64,000 bases of DNA from NCBI GenBank assembly GCA_035705495.1, contig DASSWB010000026.1:13206-77205 (forward strand), in the 5' to 3' direction. A model generated the notes under the pieces. The model saw only the letters and a list, made by a program, of their open reading frames with translations. It had not been told where the DNA came from and searched no databases. Position 1 is the stretch's first letter, and each line of letters begins with the position of its first letter. The position numbers and the translations under genes were made by a program. This document shows, piece by piece, positions 10,587-32,246 of this stretch. The DNA comes from Salinimicrobium sp. GTDB lineage: Bacteria > Bacteroidota > Bacteroidia > Flavobacteriales > Flavobacteriaceae.

Positions 10587-12317
10587 TTATTCTTCTTTTA
10601 AAGGAGCTAAATTCATAGATTCAATTTCCGCCGGCGGATTCTGATCTTCTCCCTCTTCTTGAAGATCATTGCTTTCCAGACGTGAATTCTTATTTAACAA
10701 AGACCTGCCTTTTTCATTTTCAAAAAAATCTTTTTCTTCCTTCGGAACTTCCAAACCTCTTATTTCAGGCAATTCCAATGGTGGTTCACCTTTGAATAAA
10801 TCTTCTTTGGTTTCCAACCTTTCATCGCCTCGCCAGTTGAAACCACGCAATTGTCTTACGTTTTCGGGAAAATCTGCTTCGGGGAATAAATTACCATCAA
10901 TTTGTTTGAAATAGTAAATATCTTCAATTTGCCGATTGTTGATCAATAACCTGATTGATGAAGAAAGTGTTTTGTTGATGCCAACCAATTCGCCATCATC
11001 ATTTCGGGAATAAAAAATAGTTTCGGTATTTTTCAGGATATCGACTTGATACAGTTCGTTTTCCGAAAAAAGACCGACAAGTTCTTTTCCCTTCACCTGA
11101 TTAAATCCGCCAAGGCTATCCTGCTGGATCATAAACGCATTGTAAAACACCTTGAGTGAATCCAATTCCTCACTTTTGGGTTTATTTTTTAAATGGATTG
11201 TATCTCCGGTCATTTGTCCGTTGGACGACCAAACAACGGGATTTCCCAACATTTGGGTCAATCCTGTTTTTTCATTGACGTGAATGGAATCACTTTTACC
11301 ACTCATGTCACTTTTAAAAATCCGCACATCTCGAAAACCTCTAATAATTCGATTATCCGGTTTTCCGGTGACCATTAAAGTATCTCCGTGAATGTAAATG
11401 GAATCCTTTTCTTGAATACTAATCGCGACTGCTCTTTTTGTGATAAAAACTGAATCTTTTTCCCGAAAAACTTCGGCATAATGCCCTCGAATAACGCTGT
11501 TATTAATTGTATCGGTCACTACAATATTATTAGTGGCAGAAGCGAAATTAGTGTTACGATTAAAGTAAAGACTATCGCCTTCAAGTTTTCTATTTTCGTA
11601 ATTAATCGTCGAATTTTTTACAAAATAGCCTGTATCACCTCTCGTATCATAAAACCCTCTTTCACAGTAAACCGTACTCGTGGGACTCGTAATTGTTGTG
11701 GGGCCGTAGAAAAAGGCATGGCCATTATCAGAATAAAAGTCGAGTTGGGCTGAATTAATTTCGTATTTCGGGTTAACTAGTTTTACATTGGATGCAAACG
11801 AATACTTTTTTGATTTCAGAAAATACCTTCCAATTTTACTTGTCAGGACACTGGCCGTGTCCCGAATGGTTCCGCCGCTTTTATAATACGCTTCCTGTTT
11901 GAGTCGGTCAAAAAATAGCGAATCGGTGGCCAAAGAAGAATTAGGATCCCGAAGCATTACATCTCCACTCGCAAAGGCAAATTGAGTAGTTCCATTGTAT
12001 TCAGCGTAATTACTGCTCATTTTAATCGTATCACCTTGATTCATCCTCACGTTTCCGTAGGCCCTAAAAAAGTTTTCCGCTTCGTAATGAATTGCTTGAT
12101 CACACCATATTTCTATTCCTTTGTGCTTAAAATAGACTTGGTTTACAACTTTACTTAAGATGATGGCACCTGGATATTTTTCTTCATCTTTTAAGGTCCT
12201 GTCGCTGGTATAATCAATCTGCCGTTCTTGCGCGGAAAGTATATTTCCGAAGCAAAAGAAACAAATAATCAAAATCAAGTACCGTAGTCGTTTCAAGATG
12301 TGAATTTTAGTCTGCAA
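10587..12317 (-). CDS. OstA/LptA-like repeat protein with signal peptide and acidic C-terminal tail
   Basis: 576 aa. Signal-like LILIICFFCFGNILSAQ. Repeated beta-rich segments typical of Bacteroidota OstA-like proteins. The tracked start is TTG; an in-frame TTG giving MKRLRYLIL is an alternative. Abuts the aminotransferase gene with zero spacer. Confidence 0.45.
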   Translation of the reverse strand: MQTKIHILKRLRYLILIICFFCFGNILSAQERQIDYTSDRTLKDEEKYPGAIILSKVVNQVYFKHKGIEIWCDQAIHYEAENFFRAYGNVRMNQGDTIKMSSNYAEYNGTTQFAFASGDVMLRDPNSSLATDSLFFDRLKQEAYYKSGGTIRDTASVLTSKIGRYFLKSKKYSFASNVKLVNPKYEINSAQLDFYSDNGHAFFYGPTTITSPTSTVYCERGFYDTRGDTGYFVKNSTINYENRKLEGDSLYFNRNTNFASATNNIVVTDTINNSVIRGHYAEVFREKDSVFITKRAVAISIQEKDSIYIHGDTLMVTGKPDNRIIRGFRDVRIFKSDMSGKSDSIHVNEKTGLTQMLGNPVVWSSNGQMTGDTIHLKNKPKSEELDSLKVFYNAFMIQQDSLGGFNQVKGKELVGLFSENELYQVDILKNTETIFYSRNDDGELVGINKTLSSSIRLLINNRQIEDIYYFKQIDGNLFPEADFPENVRQLRGFNWRGDERLETKEDLFKGEPPLELPEIRGLEVPKEEKDFFENEKGRSLLNKNSRLESNDLQEEGEDQNPPAEIESMNLAPLKEE

Positions 12318-12413: not shown

Positions 12414-12502
12414 TATACTGGAATCATGTCTTGTTTGATTCCGAATTCAATTCAAAATCAAGAATTTTTTATTTGAAGAAAACTTTTCGATTTAAAAAAA
12501 TC

Positions 12503-13774
12503 TTAGCGCAATATCGTTTGCTCCCTATCTGGTCCAACAGATACTAGTTTGATCGGCACACCAACTTCTTCTTCAATAAAACTGATGTAATCATTTAATT
12601 CTTTCGGGAATTCTGAAACATCTGTTATTTTGGTCAGATCTTCTTTCCAACCTTTCATTTTTGTATATACGCAAGTAACGTTTTCTGCCTCAATATTGTA
12701 TGGCAAATGCTTGATTTCAGAGCCTTTATGATTATATGCGGTACAGATTTTTAAATTTGAAAAACCACTTAGAACGTCGGCCTTCATCATCATTAATTGT
12801 GTAACACCATTTATTTCAACTGCATATTTTAAAGCGACAAGATCTAACCAGCCACAACGACGTGGTCTTCCGGTTGTGGCGCCAAATTCGTTTCCTACAC
12901 GGCCCATTCTTTTCCCGTCTTCATCATTCAATTCTGACGGAAACGGACCACTTCCAACGCGCGTTGCATAAGCCTTAAAAATACCATAGACTTCCCCGAT
13001 TTTATTTGGGGCAATTCCCAAACCGGTACACGCTCCTGCAGCCGTGGTATTGGATGAAGTTACAAAAGGATAAGTCCCAAAATCAATGTCCAAAAGAGAA
13101 CCTTGCGCTCCTTCTGCCAGAATTGTTTTCTCTTCTCTTTGCGCCTGAAACAAATATTCTTCGCTATCAATAAACTGCAAAGTTTTGAGCATTTCCACAG
13201 CGCTGAAAAAATCCTTTTCCAATTCTTCCAAACTGTATTGCACGTCCACATTGTAAAAAGCAATCATCGCTTCATGCTTGTTTGCCAAGTGGCGGTATTT
13301 TTCTTTCCAATCCGGAAGTTCGAGGTCACCGACCCTAATTCCGTTTCTTCCGGTTTTATCCATGTAAGTCGGGCCAATTCCTTTAAGGGTGGAGCCGATT
13401 TTTGCTTTGCCTTTGGAAGTTTCGGAAGCAGCATCCAATAAACGATGTGTTGGTAAAATAAGATGCGCTTTTCTGGAAATCAGAAGTTTATTCTGAAAAT
13501 CGACATCGTATTTTTTTAGATCTTCCAGCTCTTTTTTGAAAATCACAGGGTCAATAACCACTCCGTTCCCAACGATATTTATCGCGTTTTTGTGAAAAAT
13601 TCCAGAGGGTATTGTGTGAAGAACATGTTTTATTCCGTTGAATTCCAAAGTATGTCCGGCATTGGGACCGCCTTGAAATCGCGCAATAATATCATAGTTT
13701 TTTGTGAGGACATCAACAATTTTCCCTTTTCCTTCATCACCCCATTGTAATCCGAGTAGTAAATCTACCGCCAT
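12503..13774 (-). CDS. purA: adenylosuccinate synthase
   Basis: 423 aa. QWGDEGKGKIVD P-loop, GIGPTY, TTGRPRRCGWLD. Confidence 0.95.
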   Translation of the reverse strand: MAVDLLLGLQWGDEGKGKIVDVLTKNYDIIARFQGGPNAGHTLEFNGIKHVLHTIPSGIFHKNAINIVGNGVVIDPVIFKKELEDLKKYDVDFQNKLLISRKAHLILPTHRLLDAASETSKGKAKIGSTLKGIGPTYMDKTGRNGIRVGDLELPDWKEKYRHLANKHEAMIAFYNVDVQYSLEELEKDFFSAVEMLKTLQFIDSEEYLFQAQREEKTILAEGAQGSLLDIDFGTYPFVTSSNTTAAGACTGLGIAPNKIGEVYGIFKAYATRVGSGPFPSELNDEDGKRMGRVGNEFGATTGRPRRCGWLDLVALKYAVEINGVTQLMMMKADVLSGFSNLKICTAYNHKGSEIKHLPYNIEAENVTCVYTKMKGWKEDLTKITDVSEFPKELNDYISFIEEEVGVPIKLVSVGPDREQTILR

Positions 13775-14270: not shown

Positions 14271-16478
14271 TTATTCACGGGTTACCTTATCTATACCGTT
14301 GATTTTTTTAAGGTGTTCCATAAGGGTTTTTAATATGGAATTGTTTTTGACAATGACCGTTATTTTCCCTGTAAAAATGCCGTCGGAACTTTCAAAATTT
14401 ATTTTTCGGATATTCACGTTCATGTTGTTCGAAATTTCCCGAGTCACTTCATTCACCAAACCAATGTTGTCAATACCGGTCAAACTGATCACCGATTTAA
14501 ATTCTTCTTGAGACGAATCGATCCATTTTGCGGAAATGATCCGGTACGCAAAATTACTCTGGAGTTGAATCGCGTTTGGGCAATCCTTTTTATGAACTTT
14601 AATGCCTTCGCTAACGGTCAAAAATCCGAAGACACTGTCGCCAGGAATTGGATTGCAACAATTGGCAAGTTTGTAATCAAATTTTTCTTCTTCTTTTCCA
14701 AAAACAAGCTGATCATAATTTGCCGTTACCTCATCCTTATCAATATCCTCAGCAACATGAGGTTTTCTGATCTTGTTTTTGATGAAACTCATTAAAGCGT
14801 TGCTTCGGGAAGCAGCAAATTCTTTTAATTTGGTATTTTCAATACGACCTATCCCGACTCGATAGAATAAATCCAGACTTGTTTTCAGTTTGAAAAAAAT
14901 GACAAGATCGTTCACCGTCTTTTCATTGAACGGAATTTTCTGTGCCTTCAGTTTTCGCCGAAGAATTGCTTTTCCTTCTTCCGCAATTTCCTTTTTCTCG
15001 TCTTTAAGAGACGATTTAATTTTGGCCCTCGCCCTTGCTGTTGTAGCGTAATCCAACCAGTTGGCCGTAGGTTTGCTTTTTTCCGAAGTAATAATATCGA
15101 CTTGGTCACCGCTCTTTAGCTCGTGACTTAAAGGAACCAGTTTTCCGTTAACGCGGGCACCTCTTGTGTGTAAACCGATTTCTGTATGAATGCTGAAAGC
15201 AAAATCCAGTGGTGTAGCACCTTTGGGCAAGGATTTTAAATCCCCTTGCGGTGTGAAAACGAAGATTTCCTTGGAATATAAATTCAGTTTAAACTGCTCT
15301 ACAAAATCGACCGCATTGATTTCTGATCCTTCCAATACTTCTTGAAGTTTGTTGAGCCATTCTTCAAGTCCTTTTTCCTCTTGAACCGAGCCTTGTTTGT
15401 ATTTATAATGTGCAGCGTAACCTTTCTCCGCTATTTCGTTCATTCTATCACTCCGGATTTGCACTTCCACCCATCTTCCTTTTGGTCCCATTACGGTAAT
15501 ATGAAGCGCTTCGTAGCCTGTGGATTTAGGGGAAGAAATCCAGTCTCTTAATCGCGTTGGATTGGGTCGAAAATGATCCGTTACGATTGAATATATTTTC
15601 CAAGCGATAAATTTTTCATTCGATGCATCCGTATTGTAAATGATTCTTACGGCAAATTTATCATAGACTTCATCAAAACTTACATTCTGATTTTTCATTT
15701 TCCGCCGTATCGAATAAATAGATTTTGGTCTTCCTTTTATATCGTAAGTTAAATCCTCTTTATCCAAAGAATCTTTGATCACCTTGGTAAATTCCTTTAT
15801 ATAAAGATCTTGTTCCTCTTTACTTTCTTTGATTTTCGTGAAAATTTCGTTGTAAACTTCGGGCTCGGTATATTTTAACCCAAGATCTTCAAGGTCTGTT
15901 TTTATATTGTACAACCCGATACGGTGTGCCAAAGGAGCATAAATATATAAGGTTTCAGAGGCAATTTTTTCCTGTTTGTCCGGTTGCATGGAATCCATTG
16001 TTTGCATGTTGTGCAACCGATCTGCGATTTTTATGATAATTACACGAACGTCATCATTCAACGTAAGTAACATTTTACGGAAGTTTTCGGCTTGAAGTGA
16101 AACGTCTTTATCGTGCTTGAGATGCGAAATTTTTGTGAGTCCGTCAACAATATGGGCGATGGTTTCGCCGAATAATTCCCGAAGATTTTCAAGCGTGTAA
16201 GAAGTATCTTCAACAACATCATGTAACAGGGCAGCAGCGATACAAGTTGCATCCAGACCAATTTCCGATGCGACAATTTTCGCAACGGCGATTGGATGGA
16301 AAATATAAGCTTCGCCCGATTTACGCCGCTGGCCGTTATGTGCATCAACGGCGGTATCAAAAGCCAAACGAATCAATTTTTTATCTTCTGCGGAAAGCGT
16401 TTGATAACTAATTCGAAGCAATTCTTTGTACTGCCTTGCGATCTCTTTATTTTCTTGCTCTAATGCTGCTTCTGTCAT
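14271..16478 (-). CDS. bifunctional (p)ppGpp synthetase/hydrolase, RelA/SpoT homologue
   Basis: 735 aa. HD hydrolase motif (LLHDVVEDT), synthetase domain (YEALHITV), TGS and ACT-like C-terminus. Confidence 0.95.
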   Translation of the reverse strand: MTEAALEQENKEIARQYKELLRISYQTLSAEDKKLIRLAFDTAVDAHNGQRRKSGEAYIFHPIAVAKIVASEIGLDATCIAAALLHDVVEDTSYTLENLRELFGETIAHIVDGLTKISHLKHDKDVSLQAENFRKMLLTLNDDVRVIIIKIADRLHNMQTMDSMQPDKQEKIASETLYIYAPLAHRIGLYNIKTDLEDLGLKYTEPEVYNEIFTKIKESKEEQDLYIKEFTKVIKDSLDKEDLTYDIKGRPKSIYSIRRKMKNQNVSFDEVYDKFAVRIIYNTDASNEKFIAWKIYSIVTDHFRPNPTRLRDWISSPKSTGYEALHITVMGPKGRWVEVQIRSDRMNEIAEKGYAAHYKYKQGSVQEEKGLEEWLNKLQEVLEGSEINAVDFVEQFKLNLYSKEIFVFTPQGDLKSLPKGATPLDFAFSIHTEIGLHTRGARVNGKLVPLSHELKSGDQVDIITSEKSKPTANWLDYATTARARAKIKSSLKDEKKEIAEEGKAILRRKLKAQKIPFNEKTVNDLVIFFKLKTSLDLFYRVGIGRIENTKLKEFAASRSNALMSFIKNKIRKPHVAEDIDKDEVTANYDQLVFGKEEEKFDYKLANCCNPIPGDSVFGFLTVSEGIKVHKKDCPNAIQLQSNFAYRIISAKWIDSSQEEFKSVISLTGIDNIGLVNEVTREISNNMNVNIRKINFESSDGIFTGKITVIVKNNSILKTLMEHLKKINGIDKVTRE

Positions 16479-16526
16479 GAAATAAAAATAGTATTTCCAA
16501 TCTTATAAAGCAACAAGAATTATACT

Positions 16527-16592
16527 TCAAGATTTTTTTATTCTTTGAAAAAGTGTTGAGGTTAATATTTCAAAATAAAAAAAGTTACGGTG
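16527..16592 (-). repeat. left island boundary: degenerate duplicate of the last ~21 codons of the M48 protease gene
   Basis: The minus-strand reading gives HRNFFYFEILTSTLFQRIKKS*. This aligns without gaps to the M48 C-terminus HPAYVFIHYSHPTLFQRIKNL. The 20-nt core TTTTTTATTCTTTGAAAAAG (16534-16553) is identical to 21622-21641. Confidence 0.6.
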
Positions 16593-16675
16593 TTAAAAAT
16601 GCTAAAGTTTTATTAAACTGAGCTTCCGCTGAAGTTAAATTTTTAACTTTTTTTTGGAATTTTTAAAATAGACCC

Positions 16676-18422
16676 ATGAAACCCATTAAATTTCTGATTG
16701 CGCTTACCACAATTTCGCTCCTGATTAGTTGCGAATATGAAGAGGATGTTGAAACAAATATGAGTGGAGTATCTTTGGAAGAATACAGCGTTACCAATAT
16801 GAATGGAAAACAGATCCAGATGAATGCTGCACTTGTAGAAAAGTTGAGGTTGTTTAGGAATACACCTATGTTAACTGGAAAAATTGGTGATACAATCTCG
16901 GTTTCCATTGATACTACATTTGCAAAATATGTTGAAAGTAAAGATGGATTATATCATTCCTATACTTTTTCGTCATTAAATGATAGATATAAGAATATTT
17001 TGTTTTCCCAAAAAAGAGATGGTACGTATGGAACTTTTTTAGTAGAATATAATTTAACTCCAGAACAGAAAAAGTCGCTCTTGTTAGGTGAGGAAATTTT
17101 TTTTACTAATGAAGTAAAAACCACTGCTATAGAATTTACCGGTGGAAATCTCGAGATGGCAGTGAAAATGAGCGCCTGTATCGACGTTGCTTGGACATTC
17201 ACACCAGGAGAACCTTGCGTTGCCGGATTTTATTTTGGTGATCCCCGTTGTACACATACTTCAGGACCTGATGCGCCAACACCTGGGCAAATGGTAATGA
17301 CAGTTACAAACAACTGGTGGCGGTGGAAGCGTCAATTTTGGCTCATTACCTAACTCAAATCCTCCAAGCGGAGGGGGTATTTATACAGACATTAATTCCA
17401 CCTTTAATCCAGTTACCACCTACACCATGCCACCCGCCGTAAGCAGAAGGAAAATTTTCTTCATGAATTTAAATCCAGATCAGTTGGCATGTTTCAATAA
17501 TACCACAACCACAGGTTCTGGGTTGACTCCTCAAGATTCACTTCAAGTGATGAATTTTTTGGAGAACAGTTTGTTGGAAAATGGTTTGATTGCAGATTCT
17601 TCTATTTATCCTGGTGATGCCTCGGGTTTTGCTGCGGAAGCTATTACGACTATTTGTGAGGATGGTGAAGTGGATTGGGAGGAGCAGGTGATTCTAGATG
17701 ATTCTTTTACTCAAAACGACTGCCTGTATGGAATTTACCAGCAAATGGGTGAGGCGCCAATATTCAACGGCTACTTACAAAGTTTTGATAGTGATGGTTC
17801 TGTGGCAGATTTGAAGTTTAAAGCTGATAGCAACTTTGCGACAAATAGGGAAACAAAATATCATAATGCTATGGCAATAACGGATCCTCCATTGAATTCC
17901 GTTTTAATTAATATTACTTTTAACACTGATGTAACCACTACAGGAAATATTCTAGATAAACCTGATGTTTTCAAAGCTGTATCGCTTATACACGAGATTT
18001 TACATGCTGAAATGTATAGAAAAATGTTGGATGCAGTGAGAGCCGCTGAAATAAGCGGAAATAGTTTAGATTGGGCCAATTGGACCAGCGAGGAGTTTTA
18101 TAACGATTTTTTGGATAGTTTAGAAAATAAATATTTTGGAATATTTGATTACTTTACAAGGTATAAATATGGCATACCTGTTGGGAGTAACCCTAACGAT
18201 TACCAACACCAACAGCTGGCAGAACATTATCGGGACATAGTAAAGCAAGCATTAACAGAATATGATCCTAATCTCACAGAGGCACAAAAAGAAGCACTTT
18301 CGTGGATTGGTTTAAATAGCGCAGATATTGTGGCTTGGCAAAATTTAACACCAATAGACCAACAAATAATAAACAACAACATAGAAAACATGAAAAACAA
18401 CTTAGAAAATGGATGCAATTAA
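16676..18422 (+). pseudogene. lipoprotein with C-terminal HExxH (zincin-like) module, split by a frameshift within 17301-17353
   Basis: ORF 16676..17353 has a lipobox (LLISC). Its frame ends in junk-like NNWWRWKRQFWLIT*. The frame of ORF 17427..18422 is open from 17301 and reads as a G/S/P/N linker (TTGGGGSVNFGSLPNSNPPSGGGIYTD...) before the tracked Met. LIHEILHAEMY contains the HExxH. Confidence 0.55.
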
Positions 18423-18855
18423 AAAAACTGCTTTTGTCGCTTTGTTTATCCCTTGGCTGATCTTTTCACAGAAAGAAAACGGAACATTGTATCCAAAAGA
18501 TACGATTTATATCCAATATGTACACACACAACAAAATAATGATTGGAATGCAAAATTTAAAAGAAACTATCGAGGAGAATTTGGGATTTTCTTCAATATC
18601 GAAAGTAGTAGTGGAGACATAGCACTATTTTATTCTTTTAAGAAAAAAGCAGATACTTTATGTATAGAGTACTTGAACAATTTTCATTTATCCAGCTTGG
18701 AAGAGATTAATGAAAAGAGGAACGAATGGATTTTTAACAACAAACGGCCTCCTGCAGATAGAAACGGAGTCTTTCAAACTTATGTTGTCGAAATAATCTC
18801 GAACAATAAATTTGTAAAATATCCTGTGATATGGCGAAATGAGGGAAAGTATTGA
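18409..18855 (+). CDS. small exported protein P1 (immunity/inhibitor-like, uncharacterised)
   Basis: 148 aa. Signal peptide MDAIKKTAFVALFIPWLIFSQ. The start overlaps the HExxH gene stop by 14 nt. Shares the beta-rich pattern of P2-P5 (DTIYIQY ... TYVVEII ... YPVIWRNEG). Confidence 0.6.
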   Translation: MDAIKKTAFVALFIPWLIFSQKENGTLYPKDTIYIQYVHTQQNNDWNAKFKRNYRGEFGIFFNIESSSGDIALFYSFKKKADTLCIEYLNNFHLSSLEEINEKRNEWIFNNKRPPADRNGVFQTYVVEIISNNKFVKYPVIWRNEGKY

Positions 18856-18903
18856 TTACTGATTGGTCTCATTCTTTTTGCTGTCAATAGCTTCTCCTTA
18901 ACT

Positions 18904-19167
18904 ACCTATCAACAACAATTGGCAGATTTTATTTATAATAACCATGAATGGAATAGTGAAAATTCAAATTTCGTCAGTCAAATGCAATTATATTTTGGTG
19001 TAAATTGGAAAGAAAAAACTGCGGAGGCTTGTAGTTGGATAGGTCTTACAGAAACAGATCAATATTACGATTTTGTAAATGGATTATCTGCGGCTGAAGC
19101 ATTAGGTTTCGATCAAATATCCAGACAAAAAATGTTCATTAATGATGCCAATTCAAATTGTAATTAG
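18904..19167 (+). pseudogene. orphan 3' fragment paralogous to the last ~85 codons of the HExxH lipoprotein gene
   Basis: TYQQQLADF...CSWIGLTETD...NDANSNCN* parallels DYQHQQLAEHY...LSWIGLNSAD...NLENGCN* of the full-length gene. It has no HExxH and no ATG (the tracked start is TTG at 18919). Confidence 0.6.
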
Positions 19168-19168
19168 T

Positions 19169-19678
19169 ATGAAAAATCTTTATATATTTTTCTTAATAAG
19201 TTTTGGTCTCAATTTTTCTCAAAATAATATTGGTCCAGTAGATAAGAAAGGATATGATTTGTATATCGTTTATGAAGAATTAGATAAAATTTTCACAAAA
19301 CCTATAGACACTACAGATGAAAATTTACACTATAGTGTTTATACCTTAAGAATCCCTAACCAAAATAATCCAAGGTTTGTATTTAATTTTAAAGATAAGG
19401 ATAGTCTAGAGTTGGGCTATACCCTAAAGGGAGGCAATGGTACGGACTTTGATTTTAATTTTTCTCACAATAGTAAAGAACATGAAAAGTTTTATATTGA
19501 AAAAAATAAACACTTAGAGAATCAAATATCTATAAATCATATTTTGGCTTCTAATCTTAAAGTATTCGAGAGAGTATTAGAAAAGGCTAATATAATATAT
19601 ATATTGGAGGTAGTTGATGAAGAAAGTTTCGAATACATAGCAAGAGAAGTGAGTTATTCAAAGGATATTAAGCTATGA
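19169..19678 (+). CDS. small exported protein P2 (uncharacterised)
   Basis: 169 aa from ATG 19169 (MKNLYIFFLISFGLNFSQ signal peptide). It starts 1 nt after the orphan fragment's stop, mirroring the toxin/P1 junction. The tracked ORF 19142 start is probably spurious. Confidence 0.6.
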   Translation: MKNLYIFFLISFGLNFSQNNIGPVDKKGYDLYIVYEELDKIFTKPIDTTDENLHYSVYTLRIPNQNNPRFVFNFKDKDSLELGYTLKGGNGTDFDFNFSHNSKEHEKFYIEKNKHLENQISINHILASNLKVFERVLEKANIIYILEVVDEESFEYIAREVSYSKDIKL

Positions 19679-19741
19679 TTTATTAAGGGCACAAGAAAGA
19701 ATATTATACCAACTGATTTATCATTTGATAATAGGTGATAG
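19679..19741 (+). repeat. remnant of a P5-type gene 3' end (FIKGTRKNIIPTDLSFDNR*)
   Basis: Near-identical at the DNA level to 21350-21410, which encodes the P5 C-terminus (YEGTRKNIIPTDLSFDNKG*). Confidence 0.6.
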
Positions 19742-20267
19742 CCGCTCAATTCTAATTGATTCACGTATAAAAAATCTGATATTTATTATTGCGTTCTTGT
19801 TTTCTATAAATGTTTTTTCTCAAGAAAAGCAGAATGTGTATCAGGATATTTATATCATGACAAATTACTTTACTCAGGATTTTTTGGGATATAAAGCCTA
19901 TTTTGATATTAAAAGTACAGATTTAAGATTCACGCATGACACTTATTTTTTCAGGATAGACTTTCCGGATATTGATTATAGTAGCCTCTATAGTTTGGGA
20001 AAACCTGTGAATATAGATTCGATAGAGGTGATGGAGCCTAAGCAGTTTTTTTACAATAAATCAAATAATTTTATTCACACAGAACTAAGTCTTTGGGAAA
20101 AAGAAAACAACACACGAATTTTTATCGTTGCTGAAATTCCTTCAAGTCGATTAAGAAGACAGGCGGATAAATCAAAAAAGCACATGATTTGGGACGTGGA
20201 CTATGTTGGGACGATGAAAGAATTCTATCAAATGCTGATGACAAAAGGTTTGTTATCGGGAGATTGA
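19725..20267 (+). CDS. small exported protein P3 (uncharacterised); start codon uncertain
   Basis: Signal peptide IKNLIFIIAFLFSINVFSQ. The position homologous to the P2 ATG is ATA here. The only tracked start is TTG 19725, inside the remnant above. Resembles P5 (IHTELSLWEK/IHNELSLIKE; VDYVGT/LIYEGT). Confidence 0.5.
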   Translation: MIIGDSRSILIDSRIKNLIFIIAFLFSINVFSQEKQNVYQDIYIMTNYFTQDFLGYKAYFDIKSTDLRFTHDTYFFRIDFPDIDYSSLYSLGKPVNIDSIEVMEPKQFFYNKSNNFIHTELSLWEKENNTRIFIVAEIPSSRLRRQADKSKKHMIWDVDYVGTMKEFYQMLMTKGLLSGD

Positions 20268-20295
20268 AAAATATCCCCAGAAGATTTGAATAAAA

Positions 20296-20418
20296 ATGAA
20301 AAACGTATATTTTCTGTTAATCGTAATATTGCTGTCTTGTGAAGTTGTTTCACAACAAACCAGATTAAGTATTTTGGATATTATAGAAGCTTTTCACGAT
20401 AATAACCCAGACTGTTAA
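20296..20418 (+). CDS. 40-aa mini-ORF with a lipoprotein-type signal (MKNVYFLLIVILLSCEVVSQQ...), possibly a truncated cassette
   Basis: Read by hand; it falls below the ORF-track length cut-off. The stop lies 2 nt before the P4 ATG. Confidence 0.3.
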   Translation: MKNVYFLLIVILLSCEVVSQQTRLSILDIIEAFHDNNPDC

Positions 20419-20420
20419 TT

Positions 20421-20876
20421 ATGAAATACAAATTGTACATATTATTTTTCATGTTTTGTTTACAAAAAGGCTTAGCTCAAAAAAAACCGCAGCTTTGTAT
20501 ATGCTTTACTGAAAAAACAAAATATATTGAAGTCAATACCAGTGAAGATTCCACAAAAACCAGTTTTACAATTGTTAGAGGAGGATTTGAAACGAAAGAA
20601 AAAAGAAAAAAAAATTTAGAAAATTATCAAGCGGGGCCTCCTTCGGCATCGGGGCAACCCAGTTTTACTATTAATTACTATACGTCAAAAAGACCAGAAA
20701 GAATTGATTTGATAAACTCCAATGATGAGTGCGAATTCTTCATTACATTAGATCAGTTCCGTCAAAAAGAATTTGGCTTTCCAAAGGGAATAGGAGGCTC
20801 TCAAGTAATTTTTTTGAAAAAACTCCCTGATGGCTCATTTTTAAAATGGAATCCTATACTAATGGCACGCGAATAA
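20421..20876 (+). CDS. small exported protein P4 (uncharacterised)
   Basis: 151 aa. Signal peptide MKYKLYILFFMFCLQKGLAQ. Late motif SQVIFLKKLPDGSFLKWNPILMARE, as in the other P proteins. Confidence 0.55.
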   Translation: MKYKLYILFFMFCLQKGLAQKKPQLCICFTEKTKYIEVNTSEDSTKTSFTIVRGGFETKEKRKKNLENYQAGPPSASGQPSFTINYYTSKRPERIDLINSNDECEFFITLDQFRQKEFGFPKGIGGSQVIFLKKLPDGSFLKWNPILMARE

Positions 20877-20945
20877 AACTGATTAATCTTTTGAATGTAA
20901 GGATAAATTCAACATTAGTTTTAATGATAAAGAAAGTAGGTTATT

Positions 20946-21410
20946 ATGAAACGGTTAATTCTTATTGCTTTATTAATTTTCAGCTTTCAATATGCTGTTT
21001 CCCAGAATGATACTATTTATCTAATGGTAGAAGATGTTTCCATTCAATCAAGAATAGGACAAGAATTATCTTGGGGGTTTTTGGTTAAAAGCCATGATGA
21101 TCGTTTCATTTGTGATTATTACAAATTTCAAATTCCAAATTGGATGGGCATTGATGAGAAAGGAGAAGATATTTTTTTTAACGCTGATCAGTTAAAAAAA
21201 GGAATTGATTTGGATTCCATTCATTTCGAAACCATTTCGTCTTTTATTCTTAATAAAAAACCTTGGGAGATACATAATGAATTAAGTTTGATAAAGGAAA
21301 TATTTATTATTGGACGACAAAATGGCAATTATTATTTCTTGCCATTAATTTATGAGGGCACACGAAAAAATATTATACCAACTGATTTATCCTTTGATAA
21401 TAAAGGATAG
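20946..21410 (+). CDS. small exported protein P5 (uncharacterised)
   Basis: 154 aa. Signal peptide MKRLILIALLIFSFQYAVSQ. Then DTIYLMVE ... KEIFIIGRQNGNYYFLPLIYEGT. Confidence 0.6.
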   Translation: MKRLILIALLIFSFQYAVSQNDTIYLMVEDVSIQSRIGQELSWGFLVKSHDDRFICDYYKFQIPNWMGIDEKGEDIFFNADQLKKGIDLDSIHFETISSFILNKKPWEIHNELSLIKEIFIIGRQNGNYYFLPLIYEGTRKNIIPTDLSFDNKG

Positions 21411-21439
21411 TGCCAGTTGTAATTGATTCACGTCTTAAA

Positions 21440-21527
21440 AAGAATCTTTATATATTCATTTTTAACACATTTTGGTATCAATTTTTCTCAGAATAACAAT
21501 GATCCCATAGATAAGAAGGGATATGAT
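21440..21527 (+). pseudogene. decayed 5' fragment of a P2-type gene (no ATG, indel, stops)
   Basis: By-eye alignment shows roughly 85% identity to 19172-19258 (AATCTTTATATATT...TTTTGGT.TCAATTTTTCTCA.AATAA...TAGATAAGAA.GGATATGAT). Confidence 0.6.
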
Positions 21528-21540
21528 GATTATAATGAAT

Positions 21541-21571
21541 AAAAAAGCCGCAGAATTGCGGCATTTTTTTT
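21541..21571. terminator. bidirectional intrinsic terminator (GCCGCA-GAAT-TGCGGC, A6 before, T8 after)
   Basis: Read directly. It closes the plus-strand island array and sits about 40 nt beyond the minus-strand M48 stop. Confidence 0.7.
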
Positions 21572-21608
21572 GAATTTGAAAATCCACAACTTCCTCGAAA
21601 CCCTAAAC

Positions 21609-22841
21609 TTAATTTTCCAAATTTTTTATTCTTTGAAAAAGAGTGGGATGTGAATAATGTATAAAAACATAAGCGGGATGCGGCGTTAAATTACTTAAAC
21701 TGTTCTTGGATAATTTTTTAAGACCAGAAATCAATGCTTCAGATTCAAAAGTATTTTTAGCATATTCGTCTGCTTGATATTCGAATTTTCTAGAGATTAA
21801 ATTCATTATTATTCCTGTTACCTCGGAAATCGGTCCGTATAAAATACCGAAAGCAATCAAGCCGACATGAAAACTTGGTTGTTCAACTCCCAAAGCATTT
21901 GAAAGCAACGGATTGTTTATGAAAAGCGAAAGCAACCACAACGTAAATCCGGTGATCAAGATGGAAATAATCAAATTGAAAATAATGTGCTTCTTTTTAT
22001 AATGACCGACTTCATGCGCCAAAACGGCAACGATTTCGGGTTCATCCAAGTCATTGATCAAGGTGTCGTACAGTGTGATTCGCTTTTCTTTTCCAAAACC
22101 AGAAAAATAGGCGTTCGCTTTTGTGCTTCTTTTTGAACCATCAATTACGAAAATATTGTCCAGTGTAAAACCGACTTTTTGCGCATAAGTTTCGATTTGA
22201 TCTCTTAAAGAACCTTCACCTAAAGGTGTTTGTTTGTTGAAAATCGGCACAATCAATTTTGCATAAAACATATTGACGAAAACCGAAAAAATCGCCACCA
22301 ATCCCCAAGTGTAAAGCCAGAAATTATCGTCGGTGATTTGGTAGAACCAAATGATAAGTGACAAGATCCCGCCGCCCACGATAATCATCATTGCCCAAGA
22401 TTTGAGCTTGTCTAAAAAGAAAGTCTTTTTTGTGGTTTTATTGAAACCGTATTTTTCTTCAATCACAAAAGTGTTGTAGTAAGAAAACGGAAGACTTATG
22501 ATGTCACTTGCGAGCATTATAATTCCGAAGAAAATCAAACCAATTACAATTTCATTATCTGAAATGGAACGTGCAATTTCATCCACAAAATCAAATCCGT
22601 CGAGGAAGAGAAAAAGCAATGTTACAATGATTGAAAATGTAGAAGAAATAATTCCGAAGCTGTATTTTTCCTTTTTATAACGCATTGATTTCTCGTATTC
22701 TTCAGCGTTGTAAATATCTTGCAACGGTTCAGGAATCGGATCGTTAAAATGTTTGGCGTTCAGGAAATCGAGAATTTTTTCAATTAAAAAATCCAATAAT
22801 ATAATTCCGATGATAATGTAGAAAAGTGTGATTGAAGACAT
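21609..22841 (-). CDS. M48 family (Ste24/HtpX-like) integral-membrane zinc metalloprotease
   Basis: 410 aa. Multi-TM N-terminus and VLAHEVGHYKKKH (HExxH). The last 21 codons are duplicated at 16527-16592. Confidence 0.85.
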   Translation of the reverse strand: MSSITLFYIIIGIILLDFLIEKILDFLNAKHFNDPIPEPLQDIYNAEEYEKSMRYKKEKYSFGIISSTFSIIVTLLFLFLDGFDFVDEIARSISDNEIVIGLIFFGIIMLASDIISLPFSYYNTFVIEEKYGFNKTTKKTFFLDKLKSWAMMIIVGGGILSLIIWFYQITDDNFWLYTWGLVAIFSVFVNMFYAKLIVPIFNKQTPLGEGSLRDQIETYAQKVGFTLDNIFVIDGSKRSTKANAYFSGFGKEKRITLYDTLINDLDEPEIVAVLAHEVGHYKKKHIIFNLIISILITGFTLWLLSLFINNPLLSNALGVEQPSFHVGLIAFGILYGPISEVTGIIMNLISRKFEYQADEYAKNTFESEALISGLKKLSKNSLSNLTPHPAYVFIHYSHPTLFQRIKNLEN

Positions 22842-28655: not shown

Positions 28656-31019
28656 ATGAACCCTGAATTTTTACATTCTCCCTTGAAAATACTCATTAGT
28701 TTTCACAAAATTATTGAACAGTATGAGAAGGAGTTGGAACGTGAAAAAAATCCGATAGTTCAGGACTATATTGTCAGGGTGCTTCAGTATTTGAATGATT
28801 ATCCGCAGTTGGTCGATGGAATTACCAATTTTTCAGAATTAAAAAATTACAGAGATCCTATAAAATTACTTCTCAGTGATCTTTTTCCGCACGTTTTGAC
28901 AAACAATGAAATAAAAGCGGTTACTATTCCTTTTCAAGACAAGGTGTTTAACCTTTCCAATAAATTTAAAAATATTCTGGAAAACGCCGGAGAGGATTTT
29001 CATATGGAAATAAGAAATCTGGACGAAGATTCACGGTATATTTTTACCTGCATTCTTATCCTTAATGTCCATTATCAATACAACATTGATTTTTCACATC
29101 CGCTCTATTATGACATTCCCGATCAAAATGGGATCATGAAAAATTACAAAATCGATATCAATACTGATTTTATTGAAATTTTCCCTGCTGAAAACACCGA
29201 AAGCATACAAGATGCAGATGTCGATATTTTACTTCAAAATATTGATGATGTCACCTTATGGAAGGAGAAATTTCCATTGAATAGCTATGTTTTTAAAGGA
29301 ATTGCGATATTAAATTTAACCGATGTTACGGTGGGAGATGCGATTTCGGATTTGAAAACGGCATTACTTTCCCAACCAGTTTCAGAGGAAGATCAACTTT
29401 TTCATTTTCAGGAAATTTTCAGGTCCATTTATAAAATCTCAGATTTGGAAGTCGGTTTTACGCTTTATAATGAAGAAACGGCTTCATTTGAAAAATTGAG
29501 GAAGAAATCAAACAGTTTTATTTTAAACAAAAAAAATAAAGAAGAAGCAGTTGAGGCCATTTGCGATGATTCGTATAAATCCATTCTAGAAGATAAATTA
29601 ATTTTTTCCATTTCCAATGTAGATCGGTACGTGAGATCTACAGGTACTAATAAGTTGGCACAGAATCTTAAAGAAAGGGGAATTCAAAGCTGTTTACTCG
29701 CGCCAATCGCAAACCGGGACAATCTTTTGGGGATACTTGAATTGGTTTCCAAAAGAAAAAATGAACTGAACAGCATCAATGCAATAAAATTGGAGGGAAT
29801 TATTCCATATATGGTTACTGCGATCCAAAGAAATAAAACCGAATTTGAAAATAGGGTGAAAGCTGTCATCCAAAGTGAATGTACTTCAATACATCCAAGT
29901 GTTCTTTGGATTTTTGAAAAGGAGGCGAAAAAATTCATTCGGAATTTGGAAGAAGACGGACTCGCGTCTTTTAGGGACATTGCTTTTGAAGATGTATATC
30001 CACTTTACGGCCAGATTGATATCGTGGCTTCTTCCGAAGCAAGAAATGAAGCAATTCAGAAGGATCTACTCCATCAATTGCATCTTTTGAAAAATATTTT
30101 TGAGGAAGCATACCAACTGGAAGAACTTCCGGTTTACGAGCAAGTTCTTTTCAGGATCAAGGAATTTGAAGATGATTTGACGACCAGTCTAAATGCATCC
30201 AGTGAACAACAAGTTTATAAACTTCTGGAACAAGAAGTGCATCCCATCATGAAGCATATCAAAAAACACAATAAAGAATTGAAAGCTTCAATAAAGGAAT
30301 ATTATAAGTTAATCACGCCAAACTCAGGAATTATATATAACCATAGGAAGAATTATGATGAAAGTGTTCAAAAAGTAAATCGGGTTTTGGCGAGATACAT
30401 TGATGCCAAACAACTTGAAGCACAAGAAATATATCCGCATTACTTCGAAAGATATAAAACCGATGGTGTTGAACATAATATATACATGGGAGGTGCCCTT
30501 TCCAAGAAAGCCTTTAGCATGGTGTATTTGTTCAATCTTAGGATATGGCAATTGAAGACCATGTGCGAAATGGAGAACAGGTTTTATCAAATTCAGCAAA
30601 ACATGCCTTTGGTTCTGCCTGCTGCCTCCCTCATTTTGGTTTACGGCGGAACAGTTTCGATTCGATACAGAATGGATGAGAAAAAATTTGATGTTGACGG
30701 TACCTATAACGCACGTTATGAGATTATAAAAAAGAGAATTGACAAAGCTTATGTGAAAGGAACGGAAGAACGGGTGACCCAAAAAGGAAAAATATCCATT
30801 ATTTATTCCCAAAGCAATGATGAAAAGGAATATTTGAGATATGTAAAATACCTGCAAGCCAAAAATTATTTAGGAGAAAACGTTGAAATTGTAGAATTGG
30901 AAGATGTTCAAGGTGTAGTGGGCCTTAAAGCGATAAGGGCAGAGATTTTATATCATATAGACGAAACAAACCCGAATAAAGTGGTCCGTTTTGATGAGTT
31001 CATAAAAGATTTACATTAG
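28656..31019 (+). CDS. 787-aa GAF-domain protein with a large uncharacterised C-terminal region
   Basis: The central segment ...SCLLAPIANRDNLLGILELVSKRKNELNSINAIKLEGIIPYMVTAIQRN matches the C-terminal half of a GAF fold. The rest is unrecognised. Confidence 0.55.
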   Translation: MNPEFLHSPLKILISFHKIIEQYEKELEREKNPIVQDYIVRVLQYLNDYPQLVDGITNFSELKNYRDPIKLLLSDLFPHVLTNNEIKAVTIPFQDKVFNLSNKFKNILENAGEDFHMEIRNLDEDSRYIFTCILILNVHYQYNIDFSHPLYYDIPDQNGIMKNYKIDINTDFIEIFPAENTESIQDADVDILLQNIDDVTLWKEKFPLNSYVFKGIAILNLTDVTVGDAISDLKTALLSQPVSEEDQLFHFQEIFRSIYKISDLEVGFTLYNEETASFEKLRKKSNSFILNKKNKEEAVEAICDDSYKSILEDKLIFSISNVDRYVRSTGTNKLAQNLKERGIQSCLLAPIANRDNLLGILELVSKRKNELNSINAIKLEGIIPYMVTAIQRNKTEFENRVKAVIQSECTSIHPSVLWIFEKEAKKFIRNLEEDGLASFRDIAFEDVYPLYGQIDIVASSEARNEAIQKDLLHQLHLLKNIFEEAYQLEELPVYEQVLFRIKEFEDDLTTSLNASSEQQVYKLLEQEVHPIMKHIKKHNKELKASIKEYYKLITPNSGIIYNHRKNYDESVQKVNRVLARYIDAKQLEAQEIYPHYFERYKTDGVEHNIYMGGALSKKAFSMVYLFNLRIWQLKTMCEMENRFYQIQQNMPLVLPAASLILVYGGTVSIRYRMDEKKFDVDGTYNARYEIIKKRIDKAYVKGTEERVTQKGKISIIYSQSNDEKEYLRYVKYLQAKNYLGENVEIVELEDVQGVVGLKAIRAEILYHIDETNPNKVVRFDEFIKDLH

Positions 31020-32195
31020 GAAATAGGCAATCCCAAAACTGGTAACGCTTAATATTATTCCTATCATGAAAGTTGTGTAGGTAATTCTAAGTAGTTTGTA
31101 TTTTCTGTTAAGAACGACGCCCAAATAATACAAATCTTTTGTAAGGGAATTATACACATATTGTTTGTCATTTATAATTTCATTCATCGCCCATTCGTAT
31201 TGTTCATAAGGCATTTTGTGAAAGTTTCCGAAGAAAAGAATATTCACATCCCTATTTTTGACCTGTTCTTTTGTGAATTCACCTGAGGTCACATTGGGTC
31301 GGGTGGACATAATGGAGAGAATAATGGAAGCCACACTAAACAGAATCAAAATAATTGACGGCACCAAGATATATTTGTTTGTCATCGTCTCTAGTTGCGG
31401 GATAATATTTGCCATTGCCAGAGAAATAATAATCGCGTTTACGGATAGTAAAATATTGGCTTTGGTATCAGCAATATCACTGAGTTTTAAATGATTCCGC
31501 ATGGTCACCCTATACATGGTTTGGATGCTTCTCTCGGGATTGTCGTTTTTATATTTCGCTTTTAATTTCGCTTTAATTTTTTCTTCCGTGTACTTCTTTT
31601 TCTTTTTGTTTTTCTTTTCGAGCAAACTAAAAAGATTTTCTTCCTTGGTTGCCCTCCAATTTTGTATTGCGTAATGCGTATAGAACTTATGCTCGTGTGT
31701 CAGGAATTTAATGTTTTCTTCAACCCATTCAATAGGGTCATAACTTTTAATATGGTTCAACTTGAGTTCTTGCCGCAGCAATTCACTTGTTTTTTCAAAG
31801 TGTTCTTTGGCAAAATGGGAGGAATCGGCATCTTTTAATATTTTCTGAAGCTCTGTTTTGGGCTCAACACCCATTTTGGTGGCTTTAATACATGAAATTA
31901 CTTCATCTATTATTTCTTGTGCTACATTTTCTTCTTTTAAAAAAGTGGTGGCAATTTTTATACTTTCTTCTTCGTGTCCTTTGTAAGTGTGGATATATCC
32001 AACGTCGTGAAACCAAGCAGCCAGTAAGACGGTCTCTTCTTGTTTAACATTAATTTGAGATTTTTCAATTATTTCTTTAGTACTTTTAATTACACGTTTA
32101 GTGTGTTTATGGTTGTGATAAAGAAAGGTTGAAGGCAATTTCTCATTAAATAATTGCTCAACAAATTGTTCGACTTTTTCTAATAATACAGACAT
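31011..32195 (-). CDS. HD-domain phosphohydrolase fused to a DUF5706/PycTM-like (Pycsar-effector-like) membrane module
   Basis: N-terminus has HNHKHTKRV...AAWFHDVGY (the H...HD motif), then a K-rich linker. The C-terminal half has LSDIADTKANILLSVNAIIISL plus two or more additional TM segments. ATG 32195 is preferred over the tracked TTG 32216. The 3' end overlaps the GAF gene by 9 nt. Confidence 0.55.
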   Translation of the reverse strand: MSVLLEKVEQFVEQLFNEKLPSTFLYHNHKHTKRVIKSTKEIIEKSQINVKQEETVLLAAWFHDVGYIHTYKGHEEESIKIATTFLKEENVAQEIIDEVISCIKATKMGVEPKTELQKILKDADSSHFAKEHFEKTSELLRQELKLNHIKSYDPIEWVEENIKFLTHEHKFYTHYAIQNWRATKEENLFSLLEKKNKKKKKYTEEKIKAKLKAKYKNDNPERSIQTMYRVTMRNHLKLSDIADTKANILLSVNAIIISLAMANIIPQLETMTNKYILVPSIILILFSVASIILSIMSTRPNVTSGEFTKEQVKNRDVNILFFGNFHKMPYEQYEWAMNEIINDKQYVYNSLTKDLYYLGVVLNRKYKLLRITYTTFMIGIILSVTSFGIAYFLM

Positions 32196-32246
32196 TAAAA
32201 TTGAAGTTTCTGCCAAATTACGAAAATTTCATTCCAAATATTTTTT

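Follow-up and report, generated by a model that had tools for sequence, protein, structure and literature searches.

An integrase-less, decaying 5.1-kb islet in the 3' end of an M48 protease gene of a marine flavobacterium

How did about 5.1 kb of plus-strand genes come to lie between an M48 protease gene and relA/spoT in Salinimicrobium sp., and what do these genes carry? The question arises in a 64,000-nucleotide stretch of this genome (GenBank assembly GCA_035705495.1, contig DASSWB010000026.1, positions 13,206 to 77,205; referred to here as the window), in which relA/spoT (14271 to 16478) and the M48 gene (21609 to 22841) are both on the minus strand, while all eight open reading frames (ORFs) between them are on the plus strand, as an initial annotation of the sequence had pointed out. 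That annotation read the block as DNA inserted into the 3' end of the M48 gene, with the displaced original end left at the far border, and our comparisons bear this out, the left border being collinear with the corresponding junctions of relatives that have no insertion. We consider it probable that a foreign circle of ∼5.09 kb integrated by one crossover within 20 bp of identity at the M48 tail, giving rise to an island that resembles a cis-mobilizable element (CIME) and is decayed or dependent on functions supplied in trans.

The insertion and its borders

The left chromosomal flank encodes a protein with the Pfam domains HD_4, RelA_SpoT, TGS, and ACT_4 that is 74 to 87% identical to RelA of syntenic relatives. 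The right flank encodes an intact Ste24/HtpX-type protease (Pfam Peptidase_M48_N and Peptidase_M48) that is at most 75% identical to its best-matching relatives. Related loci were collected by scanning one genome per species and metagenome contigs with the M48 protein, which yielded 160 Flavobacteriaceae loci; gene order was read by tblastn, and 94 loci hold both M48 and relA. In these 94 loci, whose M48 identity goes as low as 57%, M48, relA, fur, and purA are co-directional in that order. The M48 stop and the relA start are ≤60 nucleotides (nt) apart in 42 of them, 61 to 200 nt in 30, and >200 nt in 22, and the relA ATG commonly lies 35 to 48 nt from the M48 stop. A gap of 35 to 42 nt with a conserved spacer, TTGTTTCTTTACAATCTTAATCGTATTTTTAA, is found in Salegentibacter, Christiangramia, Gillisia, Autumnicola, Antarcticibacterium, and the Salinimicrobium metagenome-assembled genome (MAG) L076. 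Empty sites (gap of ≤60 nt), which the initial annotation had proposed to look for in relatives, therefore exist at the genus level (MAG L076) as well as at the family level. No homologue of an island protein was found in the 160 M48 loci of other taxa. Since M48-relA adjacency is widespread in relatives, it represents the ancestral state, and compared with related genomes the window has gained 5.1 kb by insertion. A Salinimicrobium sp. MAG encodes proteins with 100% identity to those of the island. L083 (run SRR25158396), an independent Logan assembly, matches the window exactly for 15.9 kb and represents the same organism; exact-protein look-ups for closer relatives returned this organism or nothing, and the genome and metagenome scans with M48 revealed no relative closer than ∼75% M48 identity.

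The same junction holds 0.25 to 7.9 kb of other DNA in 22 of the 94 loci (L029, L031, L052, L047, L055, L063, L069, L071, L080, L066, L025, L077, and others). Gene gain at this site has recurred in Flavobacteriaceae.

The island is bracketed by an exact 20-mer, TTTTTTATTCTTTGAAAAAG, at 16534 to 16553 and 21622 to 21641. Both positions had been reported correctly in the initial annotation, whose reading would have been refuted by a 20-mer common throughout the genome; the 64-kb window contains these two copies and no near-match at ≤2 mismatches elsewhere. Exact repeats of ≥18 nt are limited to this pair and a 23-mer inside the island, and two matches to the 20-mer were obtained in 0 of 100 shuffles. 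The right copy falls in the final codons of the M48 gene, where it encodes the true C terminus (...HYSHPTLFQRIKNLEN*), and the left copy lies in the spacer upstream of relA/spoT, 56 to 75 nt before the ATG; both placements had been recognized from the outset.

That the pair is a coincidence of AT-rich sequence, the island having arrived by unrelated illegitimate recombination or being ancestral and lost elsewhere, is very improbable. The 20-mer is indeed AT rich, the M48-relA junction is variable in other genera, and 31 IMG/VR contigs contain the 20-mer, in four unrelated contexts and with flanks at background identity, so that these occurrences are best explained by chance. However, only 4 of 200 block-wise Markov simulations (2%) gave any exact 20-nt direct repeat anywhere in the window, whereas the observed one stands exactly at both synteny breakpoints. 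In addition, collinearity of the left copy with relatives' M48 tails includes the stop codon and the spacer, and loss everywhere else would be unparsimonious because M48-relA adjacency extends to 57% M48 identity.

Read on the minus strand, the left copy is ACA CTT TTT CAA AGA ATA AAA AAA TCT TGA, which encodes TLFQRIKKS-stop. It has a run of seven A's at 16533 to 16539, and the right copy has six. With one A of this run removed, the left copy reads TLFQRIKNLEV-stop, with a TAA at 16520 to 16522 followed by a 41-nt spacer to the relA ATG; the M48 family tail consensus is ...HYSHPTLLQR[IF][KR]NL[KR]x-stop. The spacer (16479 to 16519, minus strand) aligns with those of empty-site relatives, consensus TTGTTTCTTTACAATCTTAATCGTATTTTTAA..ATG, and is the ancestral M48-to-relA spacer kept beside relA. 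When the left junction was aligned by MAFFT with those of 41 empty-site relatives, collinearity extended from the Thr codon past the stop and across the spacer as far as the relA ATG, and a 1-nt gap falls opposite the extra A in every relative. Upstream of the Thr codon, the window reads …EILTS, the near-invariant HYSHP is missing, and neither nucleotide comparison nor the junction alignment detected M48 similarity on this island side of the copy. Because the junction is collinear with those of relatives and M48 similarity ends upstream of it, the segment at 16520 to 16556 (minus strand) is, as judged from these alignments, the displaced original M48 3' end, still joined to its original relA upstream region.

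The ungapped alignment of the left copy with the M48 tail proposed in the initial annotation was thus right in part. TLFQRIK is identical, while the similarity seen farther upstream (HRNFFYFEILTS versus HPAYVFIHYSHP) did not stand, as the ungapped 60-nt flanks of the two copies have 33 to 35% nucleotide identity, the background for AT-rich DNA, and HYSHP is absent. Homology upstream of TLFQRIK was accordingly rejected, and the true extension lies downstream.

The left 20-mer would be the attachment (attL-like) copy of the proposed crossover core, and the segment immediately inside it (16557 to 16675, plus strand; 33% nucleotide identity to M48 in register) would comprise the left arm of the inserted DNA and the 5' leader of the first island gene. 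At the right border, the repeat and a junction profile built from relatives point to 21609 to 21644 (minus strand) as the functional M48 tail, TLFQRIKNLEN-stop, a duplicate of 16520 to 16556 that holds the right, attR-like 20-mer. Just inside it, at 21547 to 21562, lies a hairpin resembling a bidirectional intrinsic terminator, GCCGCAGAATTGCGGC with A and T runs, which now ends both the M48 gene and the island operon. When the island arms were compared with 163 related loci, only low-complexity matches were obtained. Within the left 20-mer, 16535 to 16550 is 81% complementary to 16568 to 16583, a segment just inside the island from which it is separated by 17 nt. This imperfect inverted repeat may be a dyad bound by a recombinase, although it is too AT rich to interpret.

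Routes of insertion

The two tails encode the same protein end (K-N-L-E-x-stop) in different DNA: the Leu codon is CTT or TTG, GTA stands against AAT, and there is one indel. Twenty nucleotides are identical (22 of 23 match when the synonymous Thr codon is counted), and the six changes downstream of this core all fall within 16 nt. By hand calculation, a change-free run of ≥20 arises from seven random changes in 37 positions with a P of ∼0.015. The clustering of the changes, together with a synonymous two-base Leu change that would be unexpected in an unselected remnant, favors two previously diverged homologues joined by a crossover over a duplicate that has drifted.

The same comparison makes it improbable that the two copies are a target-site-type duplication of ∼36 nt, produced for instance by repair of staggered cuts during transposition, whose left copy has drifted since. 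Direct repeats immediately flanking the inserted DNA would fit such an event. The differences are not spread as uniform drift would have them, though, since 20 identical nt are followed by six changes in 16 nt (P of ∼0.015 under that model), and the change of Leu CTT to TTG is hard to reconcile with a remnant free of selection. Nor does the island contain a transposase, and the duplicated segment, at 20 to 36 nt, would at its full 36 nt far exceed the usual target duplications. Terminal inverted repeats did not come to light either: a scan of each border for inverted repeats found only the terminator and, next to the left core, a pair of the hairpin type, while terminal inverted repeats between the island ends were not directly searched.

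Under the reading that we prefer, circular foreign DNA carrying its own M48 tail would have crossed over reciprocally with the chromosome inside the 20-bp identity, in the last 12 codons of M48. The incoming DNA would have supplied the M48 tail …KNLEN-stop and the bidirectional terminator at 21547 to 21562, and because it brought its own version of the tail, the protease gene would have stayed intact. The original tail …KNLEV-stop, which now has one extra A, would have been displaced by 5 kb together with the 41-nt spacer containing the relA promoter region, remaining with relA. The islet has no recombinase and would most likely be a decayed or trans-dependent element that keeps its attL- and attR-like repeats, as a CIME does. 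The truncated gene head at 21414 to 21534, which abuts the right-end terminator, would be compatible with an internal deletion there. Excision would be predicted to restore an empty site reading ...ACTCTTTTTCAAAGAATAAAAAA followed by ATCTTGAAGTATAATTCTTGTTGC... or TCTTGAAG..., the left tail with and without the extra A, respectively, as the position of the crossover dictates, and to yield a circle with the junction ...TATTAACCTCAACACTTTTTCAAAGAATAAAAAATTTGGAAAATTAAG....

The circular intermediate and the enzyme involved are the parts of this scheme that we infer, and for the enzymatic step there is one serious alternative. A circular or looped fragment carrying the M48 tail of a donor flavobacterium could have been taken in by host RecA in a Campbell-type event at the longest identical stretch, 20 to 23 bp, which would give the same geometry with no dedicated recombinase; we regard this as the less likely route. 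It accords with an island lacking a recombinase and with the lack of integrase-bearing relatives at the M48-relA site. A possible spacer relic also speaks for it. The best match of the junction profile in the window (nhmmer, 21650 to 21577, E = 0.003) is the right copy, and it continues beyond the stop to include AGTTGTGGATTTTCA, a sequence similar to the spacer consensus AGTTGTTTCTTTTCA, as expected if the DNA was excised from the M48-relA junction of another genome. This hints that the incoming arm may once have come from such a junction; the matching stretch is short and of low complexity. On the other side, 20 to 23 bp of identity is at the lower limit for RecA-dependent exchange, and the making of the circle in the donor is left unexplained.

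Several observations weigh against our preferred reading. Beyond the core, the adjoining 16 to 17 nt of the two tails are no more alike in DNA than random 17-mers of the window (fraction scoring at least as high, 0.48), and the KNLE reading depends on a post hoc 1-nt correction; the left extension rests on the corrected protein reading, the position of the stop, and the collinearity with relatives' junctions. No conspecific empty site was seen, the nearest relatives having ∼75% M48 identity. No recombinase was found in the island or among the scanned neighbors (AcpH, phosphoglucomutase, LpxL, rhomboid, SIMPL, and others). Among 94 ORFs of ≥230 amino acids (aa) located in the 4 to 9 kb of sequence sampled downstream of M48 in relatives without M48-relA adjacency, no integrase family recurs (≥2 members), so that no parent element with this att site emerged. 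Finally, an M48-tail repeat of ≥12 nt is absent from 16 other insertions or long gaps checked at the junction in other genera (86 nt to 7.9 kb). Phage and plasmid comparisons gave no match for the island DNA or for its HExxH protein, described below.

Cargo of the islet

None of the eight island ORFs has a match in Pfam, NCBIfam, or PADLOC, and there is no space for a further gene. The initial impression that the island contains no recognizable housekeeping gene, and no integrase, transposase, or tRNA, was therefore sound; the tRNA and Rfam scans gave no match in the window. The island's right-hand part had also been described as visibly AT richer, and windowed analysis agrees: no other 3.15 kb of the window is as AT rich as 18.4 to 21.55 kb (GC content of 0.298, against a median of 0.367). 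The G+C content at third codon positions is 0.22 to 0.27 in several island genes versus 0.31 to 0.40 in the flanking genes. Signs of decay are a frameshift in the main gene, gene remnants within the array, and, at the right end, a gene head that has been cut short.

The main gene is represented by two ORFs. The first (16676 to 17353, plus strand) encodes the N-terminal part of a lipoprotein with the lipobox LLISC and is ended by the frameshift; the second (17302 to 18422, plus strand; annotated ORF at 17427 to 18422) encodes a conserved C-terminal domain of ∼250 aa with the HExxH motif HEILH at 17991 to 18005. They are one split gene for a lipoprotein of ∼556 aa, since a 577-aa homologue (P0008) matches both and the second frame is open upstream through a Gly-rich linker; the frame changes between 17302 and 17318. 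Full-length homologues have 500 to 600 aa, with an N-terminal lipobox (LWNC consensus), a variable middle, and the conserved C-terminal domain, in which H189, E190, and H193 of the motif are invariant in 40 sequences.

This family is large and unannotated. A profile search returned 3,401 clusters at 50% identity with an E value of ≤1e-3, and 1,373 with an E value of ≤1e-10. No Pfam family passed the threshold for eight family members, even at an E value of ≤5, the HExxH domain has no significant match in NCBIfam or PADLOC, and a sequence-profile search of PDB found no relative. An AlphaFold2 model of the domain (mean predicted local distance difference test score, 76.9; 148 residues at ≥90) places HExxH in a predicted helix (180 to 207) that follows strands 129 to 166, and Foldseek found no significant match for the modeled fold in PDB (best E value, 0.19) or BFVD (best E value, 0.15); the third metal ligand that a zincin metallopeptidase would have was not assigned.

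Downstream, a 148-aa protein with a signal peptide (18409 to 18855, plus strand) starts 14 nt before the stop of the HExxH gene ends and is the cognate, immunity-like partner. Homologues of this partner at 40 to 56% identity occupy the same position in L081, L082, L199, L200 to L202, and L203, and the 14-nt overlap recurs in L081, L199, L200 to L202, and L203. A partner of 146 to 150 aa follows an HExxH gene in at least six further contexts, mostly with the 14-nt overlap. The pairs sit in unrelated chromosomal contexts, sometimes beside insertion sequence (IS) elements or an AIPR gene, and in L199 there are three tandem partner paralogues. No flanking repeats were found around the homologous modules in L081 or L082.

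These other loci hold further arrangements. In L081, the 3' end of the toxin-like gene and the 5' end of the partner gene are tandemly duplicated (11600 to 11747 and 12103 to 12250; 84%), forming an orphan module, which is followed by an IS3-family transposase (12421 to 13595). In L200 (5855 to 7743; also in L201 and L202), the HExxH/partner pair is followed by a second pair, in which a DUF6973 protein of 510 aa is accompanied by an ORF of 117 aa; this suggests mixed arrays of effector-like pairs. A divergent Xre-type helix-turn-helix gene lies upstream of the toxin-like gene in L081 (9596 to 9844) and L195 (1471 to 1701); the island in the window has none.

The remainder of the island is an array of small plus-strand genes and fragments. 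An 82-aa ORF (18919 to 19167) is a putative orphan fragment resembling the C-terminal tip (SWIGL region) of an HExxH protein, with a weak BLASTP match to the 331-aa ORF (E = 8e-5; 31% over 42 aa). It is followed by a 178-aa signal-peptide protein (19142 to 19678), an orphan partner-like gene, part of whose 5' end (19190 to 19265) recurs at 21459 to 21534 as a junction remnant within the array. After the 178-aa ORF comes a remnant of about the last 16 codons of a gene of the 154-aa type (19672 to 19741), 83% identical to 21341 to 21410 and holding the exact 23-mer (19700 to 19722 and 21369 to 21391); this remnant shows that cassettes were reshuffled inside the array. Next are a 180-aa protein (19725 to 20267), which is a paralogue of the 154-aa protein (BLASTP, 30% over 119 aa, E = 2e-5), a 151-aa signal-peptide protein with no family match (20421 to 20876), and the 154-aa signal-peptide protein itself (20946 to 21410). 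The island ends on the right with the truncated and frameshifted 5' end of a gene like that of the 178-aa protein (21414 to 21534), 80 to 86% identical to 19190 to 19265 and 19747 to 19774. Within 19725 to 19790, the 180-aa ORF reads ATA at the position of the start ATG of its 178-aa paralogue (…CGTATAAAAAATCTG… versus …AGTATGAAAAATCTT…); it may use an upstream TTG start or be a pseudogene.

The 154- and 180-aa proteins belong to a second small-protein family. In L195 and L196, this family follows a distant HExxH lipoprotein of 618 aa with HESIH and SWIGL motifs, which is ∼24% identical to the first HExxH family and has only the lipobox/linker architecture in common with it. The small gene directly downstream of an HExxH gene thus co-varies with the HExxH subfamily, the distant subfamily pairing with the 154-aa family instead. 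The module of L195 consisting of the 618-aa lipoprotein gene and two partner genes is exactly bracketed by an 18-nt direct repeat (1861 to 1878 and 4738 to 4755; 17 of 18 identical; TTGTAATTTTAAAACCAA and TTGAAATTTTAAAACCAA), and the same is true of L196; this pair may be due to chance or may mark a second repeat-flanked insertion.

What might such pairs do? The layout of the cargo resembles a toxin/immunity locus with orphan modules, and we hold a toxin/immunity function to be about an even prospect. The cargo would then be a decaying locus of this type, with a frameshifted surface-lipoprotein gene, an overlapping gene for the secreted 148-aa partner, an orphan C-terminal fragment, and orphan partner-like genes. 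Against this stand the lack of support for toxin function from any known family or fold (Pfam, PDB, and Foldseek), the lack of a match between the HExxH domain and any Pfam metallopeptidase-toxin model, an export that apparently proceeds by a lipoprotein signal, and the fact that the C-terminal domain is the conserved part of the family and the N-terminal half the variable one, unlike in classic polymorphic toxins.

The same features could describe a surface or secreted peptidase serving nutrient acquisition or cell-envelope processing, with a chaperone or inhibitor as its partner. This is plausible, if somewhat doubtful. A lipoprotein signal combined with an HExxH motif, a conserved C-terminal domain, and no match to known toxin domains would all suit a peptidase. 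The distribution suits it less well: the genes are patchy, occur in unrelated contexts beside IS or defense genes, and come with tandem partner paralogues and apparent orphan tip fragments. A peptidase would also leave it unclear why different HExxH subfamilies have different partner families and why a frameshift is tolerated here while the partner genes persist.

Returning to a toxin/immunity role, one may speculate, tentatively, that marine Bacteroidota possess a large, undescribed family of effectors acting between bacteria, of which the islet would be a mobile unit. In this family, zincin-like HExxH surface lipoproteins would be neutralized by small secreted partners, and cassettes would spread without a recombinase by using the captured 3' end of a host gene as a homing site. 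The insertion itself is a precisely mapped case, in a poorly studied marine flavobacterium, of an integrase-less islet placed in the 3' end of a gene without damage to it. The cargo is the more useful lead, since it points to a family of HExxH lipoproteins with >3,000 clusters at 50% identity and no match in Pfam, PDB, or Foldseek, each tightly coupled to a small secreted partner and accompanied by orphan arrays. Should the pairs prove to consist of antagonistic effectors and their immunity proteins, the ecology of Flavobacteriaceae would gain a class of weapon borne on lipoproteins, and Pfam-less genes present in many marine metagenomes would gain a testable function.

About 10 kb from the island, the window encodes a 401-aa protein (31011 to 32216, minus strand) with an HD domain and PycTM, the Pycsar effector transmembrane domain (E = 8e-36), possibly an anti-phage defense gene.

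Comparison with known systems

As a genetic feature, this is a clean and fairly ordinary integrase-less, decaying islet of 5.1 kb in the 3' end of the M48 gene, and its kind is already known. It is closest to CIMEs, classic streptococcal examples of which lie in the 3' end of fda. Like these, it has direct repeats at both borders, and one repeat overlaps a protein-coding gene, whose 3' end it completes; it contains cargo only, with no integrase or transfer genes, and shows signs of decay. It differs in its host, a marine flavobacterium, in its target, an M48 protease gene, in an identity core of only 20 bp, and in that its mobilization is putative; moreover, no integrative and conjugative element (ICE) or integrative and mobilizable element (IME) bearing a cognate integrase and this att site was found among the 94 ORFs in the 4 to 9 kb sampled downstream of M48 in relatives. 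Phages, ICEs, and IMEs that integrate into 3' ends likewise leave an intact gene with an element-derived tail at one border and the displaced original tail at the other; in contrast, the islet, at 5.1 kb, has no integrase, excisionase, conjugation, or phage genes and no phage or plasmid similarity.

For the cargo, the nearest model is the polymorphic toxin/immunity locus, with its orphan toxin tips and polyimmunity arrays and a list of named toxin domains (Zhang et al. 2012, PMC3482391). As in such loci, the gene for a large secreted protein in the island and its homologous loci is closely linked to that of a small partner downstream, partner paralogues stand in tandem, putative orphan C-terminal fragments precede further small genes, and the distribution is patchy and island-like. 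Unlike them, the HExxH proteins match no Pfam metallopeptidase-toxin model and have a lipoprotein signal in place of a type V, VI, or VII secretion system (T5SS, T6SS, or T7SS) or a rearrangement hotspot (RHS) architecture, their subfamilies are conserved C-terminally and variable N-terminally, and their toxicity is putative.

A second point of comparison is the acquired interbacterial defense (AID) islands of orphan immunity genes in Bacteroidales, which Ross and colleagues reportedly described in 2019. The islet lacks an associated recombinase or a cassette system structured by repeats, its genes are unrelated to known T6SS immunity families, and, in a further difference, it retains a frameshifted cognate effector-like gene. 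What it shares with the AID islands is a series of small genes for secreted, immunity-like proteins, located on DNA that a member of the Bacteroidota acquired horizontally.

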